Assembly (NCBI GenBank): GCA_043808015.1
Contig: JAZDFI010000007.1
Span: 10,834-74,833, forward strand
DNA: 64,000 nt
Direction: 5' to 3'
Origin: Candidatus Aenigmatarchaeota archaeon
GTDB lineage: Archaea; Aenigmatarchaeota; Aenigmatarchaeia; QMZP01; QMZT01
The translations under genes were made by a program, and so were the position numbers. The notes beneath the pieces are model-generated. The model was not told where the DNA came from, did no database searches, and saw only the letters and a program-made list of their open reading frames with translations. Of the stretch, positions 1,742 through 63,581 are shown piece by piece (the first letter of the stretch is position 1; each line of letters starts with the position of its first letter).

Positions 1742-2131
1742 TCAAAGTTCGACTGTCTCAGGCGTGCGCTCATCCTTCATCATCTGTCTGCCGAAGTTCA
1801 GGAAGAACAGCGCGCTCGTGTCAAGCGAGACGGCAATCGCCAGCTTGAAGAAGACGTTCGGCGTCACGGGCTTGCTGAAGAAGTCTATCAGCACGTTCGT
1901 CGAGAGGAAGCCGACCGAGAATATGAGCAGCAGGCCGATCGCTATCGCCGTGCGCGACGTGCTCTTCCATTTCGTGCCTATGAACAGGGCGAATGCCATG
2001 ACGGCATAAGCGAGCGCGAAGAACGTGTCGGCGAAAAGCTGCTGGCCCTGCACGGCGACGGAGAAGACGAGGATTACGAAAATGACCGCCAGCATCTTGT
2101 AGTATCCCATCGAACCGTACGCAGAACCCAT
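1742..2131 (-). CDS. Small multi-pass membrane protein
   Basis: 129 aa, about 4 hydrophobic segments. Confidence 0.7.
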   Translation of the reverse strand: MGSAYGSMGYYKMLAVIFVILVFSVAVQGQQLFADTFFALAYAVMAFALFIGTKWKSTSRTAIAIGLLLIFSVGFLSTNVLIDFFSKPVTPNVFFKLAIAVSLDTSALFFLNFGRQMMKDERTPETVEL

Positions 2132-2212
2132 TTATTAAATTTTAGGCGCGCGCCCTAAAAAATGCGAAATCTTTTAAAGCGGCTGCTCTTATATAATTTA
2201 CCCGGTGATATC

Positions 2213-3157
2213 ATGTGGCTTCAGCTTAAGATGTTCCTGCTCACGACCATACTTTTCGGCATACTTTACGCCGTGATAGCAGCTGTAGCGACGTACATGG
2301 GCATCGAGGGATTTTTCTTTTACGGAGTTATCGCGATAGGGATAATTTTCATACAGTACATGGTAGGCCCGAAGATAGTCGAATGGTCCATGAAGGTGCG
2401 CTACGTTTCCGAGAAAGACGCGCCCGAACTGCACAAAATGGTCGCCGAGCTGGCGGATAAGGCTGGCATGAAGAAGCCGCGCATAGGCATATCGGATATC
2501 GCAGTCCCGAATGCCTTCGCTTTCGGGCGGTGGAAGAGCGACGGCCGCGTCTGCGTGACGAGAGGCATACTCAACATGATGAAAGAGGACGAGCTTAAGG
2601 CGGTTCTGGGTCACGAGATTTCCCACATAAACAACCGTGACGTCGCGTTCATAACTCTTCTTAGCGTCATCCCGATGATATGCTGGTTCGTGAGCAGGGG
2701 CACGCTATATTCGTCTGGCAGGAACAAGGGCAACGCCGTGCTGATAGGCATAGTCGCTTTCGTGCTTTATTTCATCACGAACCTGCTGGTCCTTTACGCA
2801 TCGAGGATACGCGAATACGGCGCCGACAAGGGCAGCGTGAAGCTGGGCAACAAGCCTTCTTCGATGGCATCGGCTCTTTACAAGCTGGTCTACGGCAGCG
2901 CAAGGGCCAACAAGGATTCGCTGAAGCAGATGGAGGGCTTCAAGGCATTCTTCGTGAACGACCCGTCAAGGGCTGTAAGCGATTTCCAGAGTTTAAAGGA
3001 TCTGGACAGCGACATGAGCGGCACAATAGACAAGAACGAGCTCGAGCGCGTAAGGAACGCGAAAGTGCATGTCAGCGCTGGCGGCAAGCTCATGGAAATC
3101 CTCAGCACGCATCCCAACATGCTCAAGAGGGTGCAGCACCTTTCGACGCTCGAGTGA
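2213..3157 (+). CDS. htpX: Zinc metalloprotease HtpX (M48)
   Basis: PNAFA, HEISH, SRIREYGAD and STHP motifs; GGTGA SD before ATG 2213. Confidence 0.93.
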   Translation: MWLQLKMFLLTTILFGILYAVIAAVATYMGIEGFFFYGVIAIGIIFIQYMVGPKIVEWSMKVRYVSEKDAPELHKMVAELADKAGMKKPRIGISDIAVPNAFAFGRWKSDGRVCVTRGILNMMKEDELKAVLGHEISHINNRDVAFITLLSVIPMICWFVSRGTLYSSGRNKGNAVLIGIVAFVLYFITNLLVLYASRIREYGADKGSVKLGNKPSSMASALYKLVYGSARANKDSLKQMEGFKAFFVNDPSRAVSDFQSLKDLDSDMSGTIDKNELERVRNAKVHVSAGGKLMEILSTHPNMLKRVQHLSTLE

Positions 3158-3170
3158 GACGGTCGATGAA

Positions 3171-3317
3171 ATGATAAAAAACAAACTTGTCGCGCTTCTG
3201 ATACTCGCGGTGCTTATATCAGGCACCGTGCTTTTCGCTTTTTACCAGTCGCCTTTCGGGCCGGTCCTGACGCTGGTCGGGATAGCGGCCTATTTCATTT
3301 TCAACAAGAAAGACTAA
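3171..3317 (+). CDS. 48-aa two-TM small protein
   Basis: MIKNKLVALLILAVL...; directly follows htpX. Confidence 0.55.
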   Translation: MIKNKLVALLILAVLISGTVLFAFYQSPFGPVLTLVGIAAYFIFNKKD

Positions 3318-3338
3318 GTTGTTACTAATCTGTTAAAA

Positions 3339-3494
3339 TCAAGCTTTGAACTTGGGGAATTTCCTTTCCACGAACTGGGGACATTTGTCCTGCGGGTATA
3401 TGCAACACAGGCAATTGTCAAGCTTGCATCTGCTTATTTGTCCGTAAGCACCGATGTTGTTGTTGCATTTCTTAGCTATGAAATCACCTTGCAT
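3339..3494 (-). CDS. Cys-rich small protein (51 aa), not in ORF track
   Basis: Manual translation MQGDFIAKKCNNNIGAYGQISRCKLDNCLCCIYPQDKCPQFVERKFPKFKA; TTTATAAT box upstream. Confidence 0.5.
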   Translation of the reverse strand: MQGDFIAKKCNNNIGAYGQISRCKLDNCLCCIYPQDKCPQFVERKFPKFKA

Positions 3495-3532
3495 TTATTT
3501 AACACGATGCATTATAAAGGGATATGGAACTT

Positions 3533-4171
3533 TCATTTCAGTTCCAGAACTTCGCTGAGTTTTTTTATCCTGTAGTCCGGCGCTAGCGACCTGTTCCACG
3601 GCGCATCGAGCAGAGCGACGCGTATGCCGCAGTTGCGCGCGAAGTCCGCATCCGAAGCGGTGTCGCCGACCATGAGAATCGCATTCTTGTCCGCTTTGAC
3701 GCTTTCCATTATGCAGTCGAACTGGTCCGGGAACGGTTTAGGACGGCTCACGCTGTCAGCTGTGCATATCTTATCGAAATATTTCTGGATGCCTAAGTGC
3801 GGCAGGAGTATATGCGCGTGCCTTGTCATCATGTTGCTGGCGATAGCGAGCCTCACGCCTTTGCTCTTCAGCGCCTCCAGCGTCTCTTTAGCGCCCGGGT
3901 TAAGCATGACCATTGACGGCCCTAAAAGCGCGTAGTTGTCCCATGCCTTCTGCGTAATCTTTTCAGCAAGCTCTGGTGTGTACTTGCCTGCTTCCCTGAG
4001 CAGCGTCTCGGCCCATGCGCGGAAGGGTTTACCGAAGAACCTGGCGATGTCGCTTTCCCATTCGTATGGGCCCATGCCAATTCCTTCGAATGCCTTGTTG
4101 AGACTCCTGAGTATCGCATCCTCCGAACTTAGAAGAGTGCCGTCGAGGTCGAAAATCACGAGTTTGAACAT
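3533..4171 (-). CDS. HAD-superfamily phosphatase (Gph-like)
   Basis: FDLDGTL, KPFP and MVGDTASD motifs. Confidence 0.92.
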   Translation of the reverse strand: MFKLVIFDLDGTLLSSEDAILRSLNKAFEGIGMGPYEWESDIARFFGKPFRAWAETLLREAGKYTPELAEKITQKAWDNYALLGPSMVMLNPGAKETLEALKSKGVRLAIASNMMTRHAHILLPHLGIQKYFDKICTADSVSRPKPFPDQFDCIMESVKADKNAILMVGDTASDADFARNCGIRVALLDAPWNRSLAPDYRIKKLSEVLELK

Positions 4172-57265: not shown

Positions 57266-58543
57266 CTATGGCTTGAAACGCCTCTGGGTGCGCGGGAACG
57301 CTATCGCGTCCTTTATGTTCTCCAGCTTGCAGAGCCATGCGACGACTCGCTCGACGCCGAGTCCGTAGCCCGAATGCGGCACGCTGCCGTAGCGGCGAAG
57401 ATCGAGATACCAGCTGTAGTTCTCGGGTTTCTCACCCATCTTCTTGAGCGACTCTGAGAGCGCTTTGATATCGGTATCCCTCTGCGAGCCGCCGATTATT
57501 TCGCCGTACCCTTCGGGCGCGAGCATGTCGAAGCACAACGCAGTTTTCGAATCTTTCGGGTCGCGCGGCTTGTAGAAGGCCATTATATCCTTCGGGTAGT
57601 TGGTGACGACGACCGGCGTGTCGAAATGCTTCATGAGCAGGTCTTCTTCGACGGTTCTCAGATCCTTGCCCCACTGCATCTTCTGGTTCTCCTTCTTGTT
57701 GAGGATTTCCAGCGCCTGCGTGTAGGTGATGGTGGGGAACGGTTTCTTTGACATTTCCTCCAGCTTCTTCACGTCCTGGCCGAGAATTTCGAGTTCCTTT
57801 TTGTTGTGCTTCAGGACTTCCTGTATTATGAATCGCACTTCGTCTTTCGCGACTTCAGTCACTTCGTCGAGTTCCATCCAGGCGGCTTCCATCTCCGCCA
57901 TCCAGAACTCCGCGAGATGACGCGACGTTTTCGAGCGTTCGGCGCGGAACGTGGGCGACATGTCGTAAACCTTTTCGAGCGCGAATACCGCCGCCTCTGC
58001 GTAGAGCTGCCATGACTGCGAAAGGTATGTGACGTCGTCGAAATATTTGACCTGGAACAGCGTCGCTCCGCCCTCGCACTGGCTGGGCTGGAATATGGGC
58101 GGGTCGAATTCGTAATAACCGCGGTCGCGGAAGAACTTGTGTATAGCGCCTACGACGGTGTGGCGGACTTTCATCGCGGCCGTGAGCTGGCGCGAGCGCA
58201 GCCAGAGGTGGCGGACGTCCATTAAAAATTCGGGGGACTGGTCCTTCGTTATCGGGTAGCGCTCGGCTATGTGCACCGGCTCCAGCGACGAAATCTTCAG
58301 CTCGAAGCCGGTCGGCGCGCGCTTGTCTTCGGCGACGGTGCCTTTGATTATGACTGACGACTCCATTGTGAGCGATTTCGCTTTTTCGAAATCCTTATTG
58401 TCGGACTTTATCGTGCACTGGACCACGTCATTCGAATCGCGCACGACTATGAATATGATGTCCTTGCTCTCGCGCATGCGGTAGACCCATCCCTTTATCT
58501 CGATGGCCTTGCCGATGCTTTGAGGAACCTTGTCGATGTTCAT
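57266..58543 (-). CDS. asnS: Asparagine--tRNA ligase
   Basis: GWVYRMR; RHLWLRS; LSQS.QLY; FRAE.SKTSRHL.EFW; GEIIGGSQR; YGSVPHSGYGLG.ER. Confidence 0.93.
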   Translation of the reverse strand: MNIDKVPQSIGKAIEIKGWVYRMRESKDIIFIVVRDSNDVVQCTIKSDNKDFEKAKSLTMESSVIIKGTVAEDKRAPTGFELKISSLEPVHIAERYPITKDQSPEFLMDVRHLWLRSRQLTAAMKVRHTVVGAIHKFFRDRGYYEFDPPIFQPSQCEGGATLFQVKYFDDVTYLSQSWQLYAEAAVFALEKVYDMSPTFRAERSKTSRHLAEFWMAEMEAAWMELDEVTEVAKDEVRFIIQEVLKHNKKELEILGQDVKKLEEMSKKPFPTITYTQALEILNKKENQKMQWGKDLRTVEEDLLMKHFDTPVVVTNYPKDIMAFYKPRDPKDSKTALCFDMLAPEGYGEIIGGSQRDTDIKALSESLKKMGEKPENYSWYLDLRRYGSVPHSGYGLGVERVVAWLCKLENIKDAIAFPRTQRRFKP

Positions 58544-58611: not shown

Positions 58612-59637
58612 CTAAAGCAGCCTCACGCCTCTTTTGGAACAATCTTCAATCATCCTCTCCGGCCAGATGCTCGCCTGCACCTCGCCAATGTGCAGTTTTT
58701 GCAGGAACAACATGCACAAGCGCGACTGGCCGATACCACCGCCGATTGTCTGAGGCAGCCCGCCAGCGAGCAGCCGCGAATGCCAGTGCAGGCGCATGCG
58801 ACTCTCGGCTTTCCTTATTGCAAGCTGTTTCGAGAGCGAAGCGCTGTCGACGCGTATGCCCATCGACGAAAGCTCCATCGATCGCGCTAGCAACGGGTAC
58901 CAGACTATTATGTCGCCGTTCAGGCCGCGTTTGCCAGCTCCGGTCTCGGTGCTCCAGTCGTCGTAGTCCGGCGCGCGCCCGTCATGCGGCTTCCCGTCCG
59001 CCAGTTCGCCTCCGATGCCTATTACGAATACGGCACCCTTCTCCTGCGCGACCGCGTCCTCGCGCTGTTTCGGCGGGAGATGCGGATACATGGACTGCAG
59101 TTCCTCTGCGTGGACGAAAGCGATTTCGTCAGGCAGGAAAGGCTTTATCCGTGGATGGCGGGAGCAAACCATGGCTTCAGTCGCCTTTATCGCACCGTAT
59201 ATTTGCCGGACAGTCGCTTTCAGCGCCGCCAGCGAGCGTTCGCCGGGCAGGATGATTTTCTCCCAGTCCCACTGGTCGACATAGAGCGAGTGAAATTCAT
59301 CGAGTATCTCGTCCGGGCGTATGGCGTTCATGTCAGTATACAGTCCTTCTCCGGCTGCGAATTCGTATTCGGCCAGCGCGAGCCGCTTCCACTTCGCCAG
59401 CGAGAACACGATCTCCGCCTTTGCGTGCGCGTCGTCGGGGATGGTAAAAGCGACTTTATGCTCAACGCCGTTAAGGTCATCGTTGACTCCTGTTCCGCTT
59501 CTCACGATTATGGGCGCCGAAACGCGCTGCAGCGCCAGCGAGCGCGCCAGCGCATCCTGGAAAAAGTCCTTTATGATTTTTATCTCTTTTTCCGTTTCCC
59601 TGATGCCAAGCAGCGGCACGTATTTATCGCTTTCCAT
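58612..59637 (-). CDS. asnA: Aspartate--ammonia ligase (bacterial-type AsnA)
   Basis: NDDLNGVE; SLAKWKR; YTDMNAIRPDE; HSLYVDQWDWE; HDGRAPDYDDW; TIGGGIGQSRL. Confidence 0.96.
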   Translation of the reverse strand: MESDKYVPLLGIRETEKEIKIIKDFFQDALARSLALQRVSAPIIVRSGTGVNDDLNGVEHKVAFTIPDDAHAKAEIVFSLAKWKRLALAEYEFAAGEGLYTDMNAIRPDEILDEFHSLYVDQWDWEKIILPGERSLAALKATVRQIYGAIKATEAMVCSRHPRIKPFLPDEIAFVHAEELQSMYPHLPPKQREDAVAQEKGAVFVIGIGGELADGKPHDGRAPDYDDWSTETGAGKRGLNGDIIVWYPLLARSMELSSMGIRVDSASLSKQLAIRKAESRMRLHWHSRLLAGGLPQTIGGGIGQSRLCMLFLQKLHIGEVQASIWPERMIEDCSKRGVRLL

Positions 59638-59743: not shown

Positions 59744-60259
59744 ATGGAACAAATGTTCAATATGGATTACGCTACGGAGGCGCGTTCAGACGCGAAAGGC
59801 GGGAAAACCGGAACCGAGGTCGACAACAAGGATCTGCGCATCCTTGAGATTCTTCGGGAAAATGGCGACCTGACCGTGCGGCAGGTCGCCTCCCGCACCC
59901 AATTGCCCATAACGACCGTGCATAATCGCATACGCCGCATGAAGAAGCTGGGCATCATAAAGCGATTCACCATCGACATCGACTACAGGAAAGTTGGCAA
60001 GGGCATTTCCGCGTACGTGCTTGTCAAAATCGACTCAAAATACCTGAAAGGCTTCCGCCACACGCAGCACGACCTTGTGAAGGACCTGAGACGTCTCGAT
60101 TTCGTGCACAAGGCGGACATCGTGACAGGAACGATAGACATAATTCTTCTCATCCGCGTGAAGGACATAGACGATCTCGACAGGATAATAATAGAGAAGC
60201 TGCGAGACGTGCAGGGCATCGATTCGACAGAGACGCTGGTCATTCTGAGGGAGAACTAG
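59744..60259 (+). CDS. Lrp/AsnC-family regulator, divergent from asnA
   Basis: VDNKDLRIL..TTVHNRIRRM..GII; VTGTID. Confidence 0.92.
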   Translation: MEQMFNMDYATEARSDAKGGKTGTEVDNKDLRILEILRENGDLTVRQVASRTQLPITTVHNRIRRMKKLGIIKRFTIDIDYRKVGKGISAYVLVKIDSKYLKGFRHTQHDLVKDLRRLDFVHKADIVTGTIDIILLIRVKDIDDLDRIIIEKLRDVQGIDSTETLVILREN

Positions 60260-60767
60260 GCTTTCTGGTCCCGTTGCTGGGGAATATCTTGCCGTTGGGT
60301 TCCCTCCTGCTCCAGTAAGTGATATAGTGCTTCCCGGATTTTGGGAGATATAGCCTCATTTCAAAAACATCGTTTTTGTCAAATTCGCACACGTGCTTAT
60401 GCGTGGTTATCTTTCTGAGATACCTGAAGTCCATCTTTGGCCTGGAACTGTTTCTGCGCACCGGCCTGCTGTAACTCAGCATATGATTTCTCGTGAAAGA
60501 CGGGTCGAAAAGAATTCTCTTGACGGTCTCCCTTATCTCGTAGAATTCGGGGCCGACTTCACTCTTGGATTCCGGGCCGTAAGGCGTCGGGAAAATGAAC
60601 TCGCCCGCGGCGCCGAAAATGTTCTTGTCATGATACCTTTCGATCATGCCGCCCAGCTTCGCGTTCAGGCTTATCTGGTCGTGTATAGTGACGTCTGGGT
60701 TTTCCAGGTACGCCATTTTTTTCCTTTTGACGTAATTCTCCGCAAGCCTGCCCGCGTATGTGGTCAT
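60240..60767 (-). CDS. Hypothetical (orphan) protein overlapping the Lrp 3' end
   Basis: 175-aa ORF. Confidence 0.55.
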   Translation of the reverse strand: MTTYAGRLAENYVKRKKMAYLENPDVTIHDQISLNAKLGGMIERYHDKNIFGAAGEFIFPTPYGPESKSEVGPEFYEIRETVKRILFDPSFTRNHMLSYSRPVRRNSSRPKMDFRYLRKITTHKHVCEFDKNDVFEMRLYLPKSGKHYITYWSRREPNGKIFPSNGTRKPSSPSE

Positions 60768-60916: not shown

Positions 60917-62191
60917 ATGATGATTATGGAGCGCACTTATTCGCATGAGCTGAAGGCCGGGGCGAAAGTCCGCCTGAAAGGCTGGGTTGACGACGTCAGG
61001 AACATGGGCAAGATCATCTTCCTCACGCTGCGCGACCGCGAAGGCAAGGTGCAGATAATCGCCAAGAAGGAAGACGTGTCCGAAGGCGTTTTCGAGACGA
61101 TCTCGAAGCTCGGCAAGGAAGACTGCGTCGAGATCGATGGAACAGCGATGGAATCGAAGATAGCGAAGCTCGGATACGAAGTCATCCCGTCGAGCGTAAA
61201 GGTCCTGGCAGGCGCTGAAAAGCCGCTGCCCATGGACAGGAACGTTGAATCATGGAAGGACACGCGCTTCGACTACCGCTACCTCGACCTGCGCCGTCCC
61301 GAGGTCCAGAAAATATTCCTCGTGCGCGACAGAACGATCGCCCTTATAGACGAATACTTCCGCAAGAACGGCTTCATCGAGATACACACGCCTGTGATTC
61401 AGGCGGCCGGCGCTGAGGGAGGATCGACTCTTTTCAAGTTCAACTATTACGGCAAAGATGCGTATCTCCGCCAGTCGCCGCAGCTGTACAAGCAGATGAT
61501 GATGGCATCCGGCCTGGACAAGATATACGAGATGGGCCAGGCGTTCAGGGCCGAGAAGTTCCACACCCGCAGGCATATTTCCGAGTTCCTTTCGCTAGAC
61601 TTCGAGATGGCGTGGATCGATAGCGAAGAAGACGTGCTTCGCGTCCTGGAGAACATGGTCGTCCACGTGATGAAGGGACTCAAGCACGAAATGCTCCACG
61701 ACCTTGTGGTTCCGGACCTGCCTTTCAAACGCATCACTTACCAGGAGGTCATAGACACGCTGAACAAGAACGGCATGCACAAGAAGTTCGGCGACGATCT
61801 CGAAGATGCGGAAGAATCGAAGTTCGCCGAGATAATGAAGAAGCAGGGCCACGAGATATATTTCATAATCAAATACCCGTCCGTGCTCAAGCCGTTCTAC
61901 GTAATGCTCGACGGCGACGTGTCGCGAGGGATTGATCTCGACTACAAGGGCCTTGAGCTCGCTTCGGGCGGCCAGCGCGAGCACCGCTACGAAGTGCTGT
62001 CACAGGTGATGAAAGACAAAGGCCTGAACCCGGCCGACTTCAAGTTCTATCTCGACGCTTTCAGATATGGGATGCCGCCGATGGGTGGGATTGGTTTTGG
62101 CGTAGAAAGATTTGTTAAACAGCTTCTTAACTTGCCGGATGTTCAAGAAACAATACTGTTCCCGAGAACTCCTGATAGACTAGTTCCTTGA
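60917..62191 (+). CDS. aspS: Aspartate--tRNA ligase (archaeal type, probably discriminating)
   Basis: LRDREG; RYLDLR; LRQSPQLYKQ; FRAE..HT.RH; SGGQREH; FPR. Confidence 0.93.
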   Translation: MMIMERTYSHELKAGAKVRLKGWVDDVRNMGKIIFLTLRDREGKVQIIAKKEDVSEGVFETISKLGKEDCVEIDGTAMESKIAKLGYEVIPSSVKVLAGAEKPLPMDRNVESWKDTRFDYRYLDLRRPEVQKIFLVRDRTIALIDEYFRKNGFIEIHTPVIQAAGAEGGSTLFKFNYYGKDAYLRQSPQLYKQMMMASGLDKIYEMGQAFRAEKFHTRRHISEFLSLDFEMAWIDSEEDVLRVLENMVVHVMKGLKHEMLHDLVVPDLPFKRITYQEVIDTLNKNGMHKKFGDDLEDAEESKFAEIMKKQGHEIYFIIKYPSVLKPFYVMLDGDVSRGIDLDYKGLELASGGQREHRYEVLSQVMKDKGLNPADFKFYLDAFRYGMPPMGGIGFGVERFVKQLLNLPDVQETILFPRTPDRLVP

Positions 62192-63172
62192 TTTGTGTTT
62201 TTTCTTCAAGTACTTCCACACTGTAGCAGCTCCTAATCCCAATTTATTTGCTATTTTTTCGTATGACAATCCTTCGTTCCTGAGTTTCGTCATTTCAGGT
62301 AAAAGTTTCTTTGCTTCTTCGTGTGTTTTCATGAAAAGCTTGTAACTTTCTGTCAATTCTTGCAATTTTGCTTGCTTCCTTTCAATAGAGAATCCTATTC
62401 TATCGCAGTATCTTACGACGTTTTGCCAACCTGTTATTCTTACGCTATAACACGCGTTTCTATTACCATGCTTGATTGAATTTTTACGAATTCTTGATTT
62501 TATGTCTAAATCCTTCAGCAGATTTGATACATCATTTATGCCATGCGTGTTGGTTGAAACAGCGGTTATTCTTTTGGAATTGACATCCACACTTCCTTCA
62601 GAATCGAAGAAACCTCTCAAAAACCTGCATTTTATTTCATTCGATGATTCAAAAACACATTCGGGTATTCTCCACGAATTCGTCTTGAATTCGCCGTGAT
62701 TTAAGATATCATTAAAAATTTCCTTGCAGCAGATTCTCGCTTGCCATTTTTCATTCCAATTTGTTTGCCTGGCTTTAATTTTTGAAATAGATGGTTGAAT
62801 TCCATAAATTTTATTCAAGCAATCTGCAAATTCTATAACGAAATCCATATCAACTGCCTGCAAGGCAATCTGATAAGATTTATTTTTTGTGCAATGCGTG
62901 TATCCATCACCGCACATCACGCCAAAAATATATGATTTTTCAGGAGACATTGCATGATATGGCGAAGTTATGATATGTTTGGCTATCCTTCCTTTAGCAA
63001 CGGCGAGAATACCAGCTTCTTTTGTTGAACGTATTCTTATTTTATTTCTTTTCAGGCAATCATAAACGGTAGAATAATGTATCCTGAATTTTTTGGCTAG
63101 AGTGTGGCCAGATTCGCCTTTTTCGTATAATGCTTTTATACTTTTTTCAATATTGGGAGAAATATGTTTCAT
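62180..63172 (-). mobile_element. Free-standing LAGLIDADG homing endonuclease with N- and C-terminal HTH segments
   Basis: YIFGVMCGDG and FLRGFFDSEG motifs; AT-rich; no intein splicing motifs. Confidence 0.88.
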
Positions 63173-63231
63173 GATAAATTATTATAAGAATTTAGTTAAA
63201 AATAATGTTTAAACATTACAAAAATATTTAA

Positions 63232-63270
63232 ACTATATTCACGCGCACGCCTGAAAAACTAGTCCCTTAA
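63232..63270 (+). pseudogene. Displaced remnant of the aspS 3' end
   Basis: ACT ATA TTC ACG CGC ACG CCT GAA AAA CTA GTC CCT TAA = TIFTRTPEKLVP* versus aspS TILFPRTPDRLVP*. Confidence 0.8.
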
Positions 63271-63552
63271 AGTTTCACATCTGTTGTTAACGCATTTGCA
63301 TGTTACAGGTGCACACATAAGATTAACGTTTTCTCCCATAAACAGATTGTACTGTCTTGTCGTGGAAACAATTTGATTTTTGTTGACACACTGACAGGTT
63401 GATTTTTTGCAGTCAGAATCCGATGAGCAAGAAAAGTTGCAAGCACCCCAATTCCAGATGGAACATTTCAAAGAATCAATGAAAACTACAAGCAGATTGA
63501 CCCCAACAAAAACGATAATTGCCAAAATCAAGACAACCAAAATTTTCCTCAT
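63259..63552 (-). CDS. Small secreted Cys-rich protein
   Basis: Signal/TM followed by CSSDSDC..CQC..CKCVNNRC. Confidence 0.7.
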   Translation of the reverse strand: MRKILVVLILAIIVFVGVNLLVVFIDSLKCSIWNWGACNFSCSSDSDCKKSTCQCVNKNQIVSTTRQYNLFMGENVNLMCAPVTCKCVNNRCETLRD

Positions 63553-63581
63553 GAAAATAATTTATTTTTATTATATAAAAA

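Follow-up and report, generated by a model that had tools for sequence, protein, structure and literature searches.

The aspartyl-tRNA synthetase gene aspS of a Candidatus Aenigmatarchaeota archaeon ends in foreign codons and is followed, on the opposite strand, by a free-standing LAGLIDADG homing endonuclease gene. Both genes lie in a 64,000-nucleotide stretch of contig JAZDFI010000007.1 (positions 10,834 to 74,833), which we call the window and to which all plain coordinates refer. An earlier note, made from the sequence alone, had proposed that a free-standing endonuclease of this type replaced the 3' end of aspS, and that proposal is supported by base composition, by phylogenetic trees, by empty alleles in relatives, and by the native gene end, which is found downstream. 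We consider it highly probable that the DNA between about 62081 and 63234 represents a mobile homing-endonuclease cassette, in which a replacement aspS end of 36 codons is joined to an opposite-strand LAGLIDADG gene, and that the cassette spreads by cutting empty alleles at the PPHGG codons; the cleavage itself is predicted from sequence comparison. The parts of the locus are as follows, with GC3 standing for the GC content at third codon positions, HTH for helix-turn-helix, and G003 for the closest relative, which is endonuclease free.

60917 to 62191, plus strand: aspS, archaeal-type aspartyl-tRNA synthetase, a hybrid gene of 424 amino acids (PF00152, E value 2.4e-86; PF01336, the OB anticodon-binding domain)
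60917 to 62080, plus strand: native part of aspS, codons 1 to 388, through the P-P of the motif (GC3 0.77; sister to G003 in the 5' tree)
62075 to 62083, plus strand: P-P-M codons, where the cassette has its left junction and its putative site of insertion and cleavage (break in identity and GC3; remnant starts in loci L118 and L050)
62081 to 62191, plus strand: 3' terminus of aspS, an imported replacement made up of 36 codons (M389 to P424) and the stop codon (GC3 0.26 to 0.28; identity to PPMGG alleles)
62180 to 62191, both strands: 12-nucleotide (nt) antisense overlap of aspS and the endonuclease gene (from the sequence and the open reading frames [ORFs])
62180 to 63172, minus strand: free-standing, single-chain LAGLIDADG homing endonuclease gene, 330 amino acids, with an HTH domain at each end (PF14528, LAGLIDADG_3, E value 1.5e-21)
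62594 to 62623, minus strand: LAGLIDADG motif 2, FLRGFFDSEG (E192 codon at 62597 to 62599)
62903 to 62932, minus strand: LAGLIDADG motif 1, YIFGVMCGDG (D89 codon at 62906 to 62908)
63173 to 63234, minus strand: AT-rich spacer 5' of the endonuclease start, a putative promoter of that gene (GC content 0.23 to 0.25; homologous spacer, with an identical spacer/remnant junction, in L010)
About 63235 to 63270, plus strand: displaced native 3' end of aspS (the remnant), 11 codons plus the stop codon, nonfunctional (match to G003; protein score 43)
63259 to 63552, minus strand: native neighbor gene for a 97-amino-acid, cysteine-rich, membrane-anchored protein (ORF that ends within the remnant; the G003 counterpart has 104 amino acids)

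We conclude that the last 36 codons of aspS are foreign. A switch to AT-rich codons near the end of the gene had been noticed earlier, and the switch is indeed abrupt: GC3 is 0.77 over the first 388 codons and 0.26 to 0.28 over the last 36, whereas 0.67 is the minimum among the 353 other 36-codon segments, all of which lie clear of the last 36. By maximum likelihood, composition changes after codon 389, which encodes the M of GMPPMGG (residues 385 to 391, with the M codon at 62081 to 62083), such that the next codon starts at 62084; the likelihood ratio of this change point was reached by 0 of 2,000 shuffles, and a Fisher test gave a P value of 3e-9. The endonuclease gene has a GC3 of 0.33. 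Across the same boundary, GC3 in the aspS gene of G003 goes only from 0.79 to 0.72, and that gene reads PPHGG and ends in RTPEKLVP. The claim that GMPPMGG stands in place of a usual PPHGG was likewise sound, as P-P-H was found in 19 of 26 endonuclease-free relatives.

Nucleotide identity breaks where composition does. The window and G003 are about 89% identical along aspS and 91% identical in the last 300 nt before the motif, whereas identity is 69% in the last 108 nt, with 33 of 108 positions mismatched against about 11% expected (binomial P value, 1.6e-8). The imported end is nearer to the ends of other occupied alleles than to its own remnant or to G003, with identities of 86%, 84%, and 80% to the PPMGG alleles L036, L008, and L010, respectively. 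Moreover, the aspS frame is unbroken across the left junction, giving a full-length protein colinear with its homologs. Exactly 36 residues follow the H/M position in 38 of the 38 aspS sequences compared.

The native end of aspS was displaced downstream of the endonuclease gene. Positions 63232 to 63270 translate as TIFTRTPEKLVP and a stop codon, and the remnant can be read as (T)IFTRTPEKLVP-stop, ending at 63270. Positions 63238 to 63270 are identical to the last 33 nt of G003 aspS at 29 of 33 positions, such that the second, degenerate aspS terminus described earlier, its translation included, is real. The blastn match between the window and G003 extends past the remnant into the downstream neighbor gene, where nucleotide identity is 71%. 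As a protein match, the remnant scores 43, whereas the highest chance scores 3' of aspS in 26 endonuclease-free loci are 22 to 34, and its identity to G003 (88%) is the same as that of the gene body (89%). The 97-amino-acid neighbor ORF has an N-terminal hydrophobic segment and many cysteines, and its protein has no Pfam match. In G003, the 104-amino-acid counterpart overlaps the end of aspS by the same 12 nt, and thus the overlapped part of the remnant is still coding for the neighbor gene. That overlap probably explains why the remnant persists.

Could the junctions be artificial? The genome is 0.93 Mb in 39 contigs and the composition of the island is strongly different from its surroundings, both of which would suit a chimeric join that put a foreign AT-rich piece after aspS. 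The same junctions, however, appear in the independent assemblies of G001, G019 (also sampled as L037 and L116), L036, and L038, and the synthetase frame crosses the left junction at full length with the 36 residues found in all 38 sequences. The right junction continues into the syntenic neighbor gene and thiL, as in G003. We regard an assembly artifact as extremely improbable. An intein or an intron was also considered and was rejected: the endonuclease gene follows the aspS stop codon and is encoded on the other strand, and AspRS contains no insertion (no RNA-family scan for group I or group II introns was run).

The same build recurs in other loci. In a first survey of 30 aspS loci (the window genome and 29 relatives), an endonuclease homolog followed aspS in four: the window, G001 of the same genus (66% identity), G019 of another genus (60% identity), and G012, in which the copy is 39 residues long and cut at the end of its contig. 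A scan of genome contigs with the single endonuclease protein found no relative, and a family alignment was then used to scan metagenome and genome collections, giving 160 loci, 67 of which passed a tblastn cutoff of at least 100 bits. A class IIb synthetase gene was directly beside the endonuclease in 28 of the 67, and the best NCBIfam model for it was aspS in all 28. The distant co-directional cassettes, with aspS identities of 37 to 40%, raised asnS as a candidate target, which was ruled out by the same NCBIfam result. Together with the window, G001, and G019, the 28 make 31 locus rows and 29 distinct sequences. Thirteen rows, including the window, are convergent, and 18 are co-directional, with both genes on the same strand, including one from a Hadesarchaea genome. 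An antisense stop overlap of the 12-nt type, at the same offset, is present in 7 of the 13 convergent rows; in the window, the aspS codons CTA GTT CCT TGA (L-V-P-stop) are S-R-N-stop of the endonuclease gene on the opposite strand, and the two genes stand tail to tail. An aspS C-terminal remnant ending in a stop codon lies beyond the endonuclease in 16 of the 31 rows (14 of the 29 distinct sequences), with scores of 43 to 162; the other rows have no remnant or have flanks too short to judge.

These recurrences bear on the view that unlinked events made the locus, in which the endonuclease landed after aspS by chance and the AT-rich end and the terminus look-alike came from mutation bias or a small tandem duplication. 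Positions 63220 to 63580, downstream, are also AT-rich, and a 12-codon remnant with a score of 43 is by itself a modest match. Chance would nonetheless have to produce the three-part build in nearly half of the distinct sequences, with remnants of up to 38 amino acids, as well as the repeated antisense overlap of the stop codons, and it would have to make the end of the window aspS most similar to the ends of occupied alleles rather than to its own remnant or G003. We think such a coincidence very unlikely.

Where the cassette inserts is indicated by the longest remnants, which are 38 amino acids long in L118 and L050 and start with PP(Y)AG and PS(Y). At both loci, the endonuclease frame runs into the remnant directly after the last conserved endonuclease residues. 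Because these remnants start at the P-P-H codons and 36 residues always follow the H/M position, we place the insertion point at P-P-H, and the GC3 and identity break of the window falls at the same point. The earlier note had put the cut in the PPHGG region; more exactly, the cut site would be the insertion site at the P-P-H codons and not just somewhere nearby. The window and G001 have a homologous spacer and an identical spacer/remnant junction, and thus their copies derive from one insertion and inherited its remnant. In L036, the spacer differs and the remnant is longer. We note that one metagenome contig, L062, encodes a bacterial-type aspS (1307 to 2713; NF001750, 686 bits) followed by an endonuclease of the aspS clade (2950 to 3807), and its short remnant, NIREVVLFPRDRDRL (score 37), resembles the archaeal-type aspS end of sister loci. 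Either the cassette brought that remnant with it or a different host gene was swapped in.

Empty alleles of the family read ATG CCN CCN CAY GGN GGN ATH GGN. An amino acid change within P-P-H was found in 10 of 10 convergent-type occupied alleles of the tree set and in 7 of 26 empty alleles (Fisher P value of 7.7e-5, kinship ignored); the occupied variants are PPM in five alleles and APH, PSH, PMH, ATH, and PKH in one each. In eight phylogenetically independent pairs, the change accompanied the endonuclease in 5.6 on average, against 0, with 2.4 tied, and the sign test gave a median P value of 0.031 (range, 0.016 to 0.125). Several empty alleles with a variant motif have occupied kin nearby, namely, G021 and G022 near G012, G034 near L042, and G030 and G036 near L066. 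The variant empty alleles would fit alleles that are resistant or were formerly occupied.

Trees of the two parts of aspS disagree, as had been anticipated. The maximum-likelihood tree of the 5' part, built on 36 rows after two G019 duplicates were dropped, follows host relationships, with the window sister to G003 in the genus clade, L038 with G014, and G012 with its own genus. In the tree of the last 108 nt, by contrast, six PPMGG alleles from three different 5' host clades (the window, G002, G001, L036, G012, and L038) form one clade with support of 97/90, and G003 and G004 stand together elsewhere (99/90). The 5' data reject a PPMGG clade in the approximately unbiased (AU) test (p-AU, 6.7e-112). 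Endonuclease-free alleles had been sought in relatives, and the genus provides them: G003 and G004 read PPHGG and have a GC-rich end. In a tree of 64 endonuclease proteins, all aspS-linked copies fall in one clade of 32 rows with a Shimodaira-Hasegawa-like approximate likelihood ratio test (SH-aLRT) support of 92, a clade that includes three rows with flanks too short to show the neighbor gene; within it, a convergent subclade of 12 rows (11 convergent and 1 co-directional) has a support of 96.

Presence of the endonuclease is sporadic among close relatives and yet tied to one fixed site, the end of aspS. It is found in two of the five genomes of the genus, and across the phylum 16 of 371 genomes match at an E value of 1e-30 or better, 4 of them beside aspS and the others at other sites; G012, with its copy cut at the contig end, adds to those 4. 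On the 36-row host tree, which has 10 occupied rows, presence requires nine changes. Among sequencing runs, no RNA run turned up. Two soil-metagenome DNA runs from one study (shares of 0.07 and 0.06) contain two exact 147- to 151-nt pieces within the endonuclease gene, along with brief conserved stretches of other organisms' aspS and thiL genes. Neither a joint nor an empty allele was found in these two runs, which contain only short pieces and are uninformative on polymorphism and on expression.

The encoded protein is a single-chain, two-motif LAGLIDADG endonuclease by its motifs and its fold, and its cleavage of the empty allele is a prediction. Both acidic residues had been described as intact, and an alignment of 12 family members, with identities as low as 40%, shows D89 and E192 to be invariant in all 12, as are G88 and the block from F188 to E192. 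An AF2 model made from the family alignment (mean predicted local distance difference test score, 88) contains two alpha-beta-beta-alpha-beta-beta-alpha halves (residues 77 to 159 and 178 to 258) and a three-helix bundle at each terminus, and HTH_23, HTH_7, and HTH_38 match residues 12 to 43 and 293 to 324. Foldseek placed PI-PfuI first (1.5e-10), followed by the TliVMA intein endonuclease and I-DmoI (TMt, 0.73 to 0.76), with a probability of 1.00 for PI-PfuI, I-DmoI, and I-Tsp061I. In a phmmer sequence search of the PDB, only PI-PfuI (1dq3) was found (1.3e-5).

Several observations weigh against a mobile element. The WhiA structures 3hyi and 8dy9 appear lower in the Foldseek list, the HTH-LAGLIDADG-HTH build resembles that of the regulator WhiA, and on that likeness individual copies may have a domesticated DNA-binding role. 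Within the genus, the endonuclease and host trees roughly agree, and the insertion shared by the window and G001 could mean that part of the pattern is old polymorphism and vertical descent. The PPMGG group used for the AU test on the 5' data was named after the motif had already been seen, and on the 108-nt end the same test fails to reject host grouping (P value of 0.17 for the genus clade and 0.066 for the window with G003). Finally, many co-directional cassettes keep PPH. The earlier note had invoked a cleavage-resistant replacement end, and the central codon is indeed changed in the window lineage. Because so many co-directional cassettes keep PPH, a change of H to M is no general need for immunity, for which recoding on the right side of the junction may suffice.

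The strongest competing explanation is that the cassette arrived once, long ago and by the same route, and is now inherited vertically as a relic or a domesticated gene whose product serves the host, for example as an HTH regulator, or serves nothing. The single spacer/remnant junction of the window and G001, the rough congruence of the trees within the genus, and the WhiA-like matches would all be expected of it, and the identities of endonuclease and aspS fall in step (74%/90%, 66%/74%, and 60%/68%). A protein without a role in cutting, however, is hard to reconcile with the invariance of both motifs and their acidic residues in all 12 aligned members, and a single old arrival is hard to reconcile with nine changes in presence on the host tree or with 3' ends from three 5' host clades that cluster. 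Moreover, the remnant is as similar to G003 as the gene body is, which makes a displacement older than the genus improbable. We judge the relic or domesticated explanation unlikely, and a mobile cassette remains our preferred reading.

Loss of the endonuclease is suggested by G002, which has neither an endonuclease nor a remnant at aspS. Its last 108 nt read PPMGG, have a GC3 of 0.39, and are cassette-like at 9 of 10 diagnostic positions. Compared with L036, the G002 locus (L008, on contig G002:C12) lacks exactly 1,137 bp, equal to the endonuclease gene, the spacer, and the remnant, and there is a 7-nt overlap at the joint. G002 and L036 are 89% identical in the downstream flank (over the 380 nt that align) versus 79% in aspS. 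The shared flank in G002 (L008 2776 to 3900, in aspS orientation) is about 1.1 kb long with two ORFs of 129 and 227 amino acids, and it has no blastn match in the sister genome G004. About 14 nt directly after the G002 aspS stop codon weakly resemble the end of the endonuclease gene, and searches for endonuclease traces 3' of G002 aspS gave local DNA alignment scores of 21 to 25, within the shuffled range (maximum, 29). Judged by these alignments, G002 is an occupied allele that lost its endonuclease by deletion, and it looks like its flank was co-converted before the endonuclease was deleted. An endonuclease-free relative with an AT-rich end and PPMGG had been named earlier as evidence against replacement; G002 fits that description in part, but it does so as a deletion derivative of an occupied allele.

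How the cassette might spread can be outlined as follows. The enzyme would recognize about 20 bp over the M-P-P-H-G-G-I-G codons of empty aspS alleles, a stretch that is the most conserved part of the gene and lies just before class II motif 3, and would cut at the P-P-H codons. Occupied and empty alleles would have to meet via some transfer of DNA between cells. The break would then be repaired by homologous recombination from an occupied allele, such that the cassette, and often its flank, is copied in. The recipient aspS would be finished by the imported end, and its own end would be pushed downstream to decay. Recoding on the right side of the junction would protect an occupied allele from further cutting, and the window lineage additionally has ATG (M) in place of the central CAT (H). 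The spacer at 63173 to 63234 may carry the promoter of the endonuclease gene. The asnS paralog of the window genome is no obvious second target, as its motif region, GSVPHSG, differs from the aspS site at many positions.

Related cassettes are found at other genes. In the window genome, a thrS cassette (L003, G000:C8:20761-24057) has an endonuclease gene at L003 1306 to 2055 on the plus strand and thrS at 2023 to 3297 on the minus strand, tail to tail and with the gene end overlapped. In this thrS (TIGR00418, 525 bits), the last 40 codons have a GC3 of 0.40, down from 0.70, and the remnant beyond the endonuclease covers 42 amino acids of the ThrRS C terminus (score 68). The same genome has a tes cassette (L002, G000:C34:39509-42886), with tes at L002 2 to 1507 on the plus strand and the endonuclease gene at 1489 to 2427 on the minus strand, again tail to tail; tes encodes tetraether lipid synthase (NF045702, 676 bits), its GC3 goes from 0.73 to 0.33, and a remnant with a stop codon follows the endonuclease (score 77). 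NCBIfam includes a model for intein-containing Tes, and thus tes is elsewhere a host to inteins as well. In contigs from Woesearchaeota and metagenomes (L074, L079, L122, L126, and L131), radA is directly followed by an endonuclease of a sister clade (SH-aLRT support of 99), and a radA remnant with a stop codon is present in two of the five loci checked (L079 and L131, scores 42 and 47) and in none of the other three. In L067, L068, L070, L119, L120, and L121, a relative with 27 to 38% identity immediately precedes uppS in the same orientation. No clear duplicate of the uppS start was found at those loci, where scores were 29 to 48 and the best match was riddled with stop codons.

A broader claim can be made only tentatively, and we hold it to be somewhat more doubtful than probable. 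Perhaps aspS-specific LAGLIDADG cassettes move between archaeal genera and phyla by cutting the P-P-H-G-G codons, and an arms race drives the motif replacements (PPM, APH, PSH, PMH, ATH, and PKH in occupied alleles and similar ones in nearby empty, presumably resistant, alleles), such that a selfish element shapes the catalytic core of a synthetase. Together with the sister cassettes at thrS, tes, and radA, these elements might then be a main channel of homologous gene flow in DPANN archaea.

The window aspS is the sole match of aspS grade in its genome, and the AspRS that it encodes is 95% identical in amino acids to that of G003. Just 5' of aspS is an Asp/Asn cluster composed of asnS (57269 to 58513, minus strand; 36% identical to aspS), asnA for aspartate-ammonia ligase (58612 to 59637, minus strand), and a gene for an Lrp/AsnC regulator (59744 to 60259, plus strand), and an unassigned 175-amino-acid ORF (60240 to 60767, minus strand) lies between that cluster and aspS. 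On the 3' side, thiL comes next after the 97-amino-acid neighbor ORF.

Why does an essential archaeal gene tolerate such an element? To our knowledge, essential genes outside phages are considered to tolerate a homing endonuclease only if it comes with an intron or an intein. The element described here has neither, and its invasion of an essential archaeal gene is possible because it brings a spare gene end. All stages of a homing cycle appear to be present at one site: empty alleles in G003 and G004, occupied alleles in the window, G001, and L036, decay of the remnant, and endonuclease loss in G002. The locus therefore offers a testable target, namely, a G003-type site versus the window's own site. 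The family is also a source of natural single-chain LAGLIDADG enzymes with extra HTH domains, whose apparent target is a universally conserved stretch of coding sequence. A further implication is that these episymbiotic archaea exchange DNA and recombine it homologously. In DPANN genomes, moreover, phylogeny can be misled by foreign signal in the 3' ends of aspS, thrS, tes, and radA. We know of gene-end-replacing endonuclease spread mainly from fungal mitochondria. In the full-text literature that was covered, from which subscription journals are largely missing, no account of such a cassette beside a synthetase gene of an archaeon turned up.

Intronless homing in phages is one point of comparison. 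There, free-standing T4-type endonucleases such as SegF and MobE, of the GIY-YIG or HNH type, act during coinfection, cut some distance from their own genes, and are not known to leave a displaced duplicate of a gene end. The aspS cassette is like them in that the endonuclease gene adjoins its target and in that a break in the empty allele would be accompanied by co-conversion of the flank, a signature of which is seen in the 3' end that travels with the endonuclease across host clades and in the flank that G002 shares with L036 and that is absent from G004. Unlike the phage enzymes, the aspS cassette appears to have its insertion site at its cut site, as is the case for intron and intein enzymes. 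The best sequence and fold matches are LAGLIDADG enzymes of archaeal inteins and rRNA introns (PI-PfuI, 1dq3; TliVMA, 7qsu; I-DmoI; and I-Tsp061I). Single chains with two motifs are common to them and the window enzyme, and the second motif has a Glu residue, as in I-DmoI (E117). The window differs from those systems in that aspS is colinear with its homologs, the endonuclease is a separate gene, and a spare gene end replaces splicing as the means of being neutral to the host.

Free-standing LAGLIDADG genes are also known from an archaeal chromosome, in the glycosylation islands of Haloferax, where they are proposed to drive gene conversion of nearby DNA (PMC5867893). That report describes no gene-end replacement or remnant there, and the Haloferax genes further differ in having flanks unlike any coding gene and in belonging to pfam03161 (PMC5867893). 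The closest parallel is with the mobile ORFs (mORFs) of fungal mitochondria. There, the native gene end gives way to a foreign C terminus accompanied by a LAGLIDADG or GIY-YIG ORF and stays downstream, forming gene hybrids at atp6 of Allomyces macrogynus and at atp6, atp9, cox2, and nad3 of Glomus sp. (PMC3630166). In two of the four Glomus hybrids, atp6 and nad3, the ORF is in frame with the host gene (PMC3630166), and partial C-terminal duplications of cob and atp6 flanked by LAGLIDADG or GIY-YIG ORFs are reported for Endoconidiophora (PMC6279837). The mORFs and the aspS cassette share the order of host core, foreign C terminus, LAGLIDADG ORF, and displaced native C terminus. They also share a native remnant that matches a close relative, an inserted end that is divergent and groups elsewhere in trees, and a proposed spread by endonuclease cutting and repair. 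Here, in contrast, the host DNA is an archaeal chromosome, the target is an aminoacyl-tRNA synthetase gene, the endonuclease gene of this lineage runs antisense to aspS, shares a 12-nt overlap with it at the stop codons, and encodes an HTH domain at each end, and the imported end alters a residue of a near-invariant motif. We conclude that the class of mechanism is already known, and that the novelty lies in the domain of life, the kind of gene targeted, the convergent and overlapping layout, the added HTH domains, and a gene end that changes the motif.

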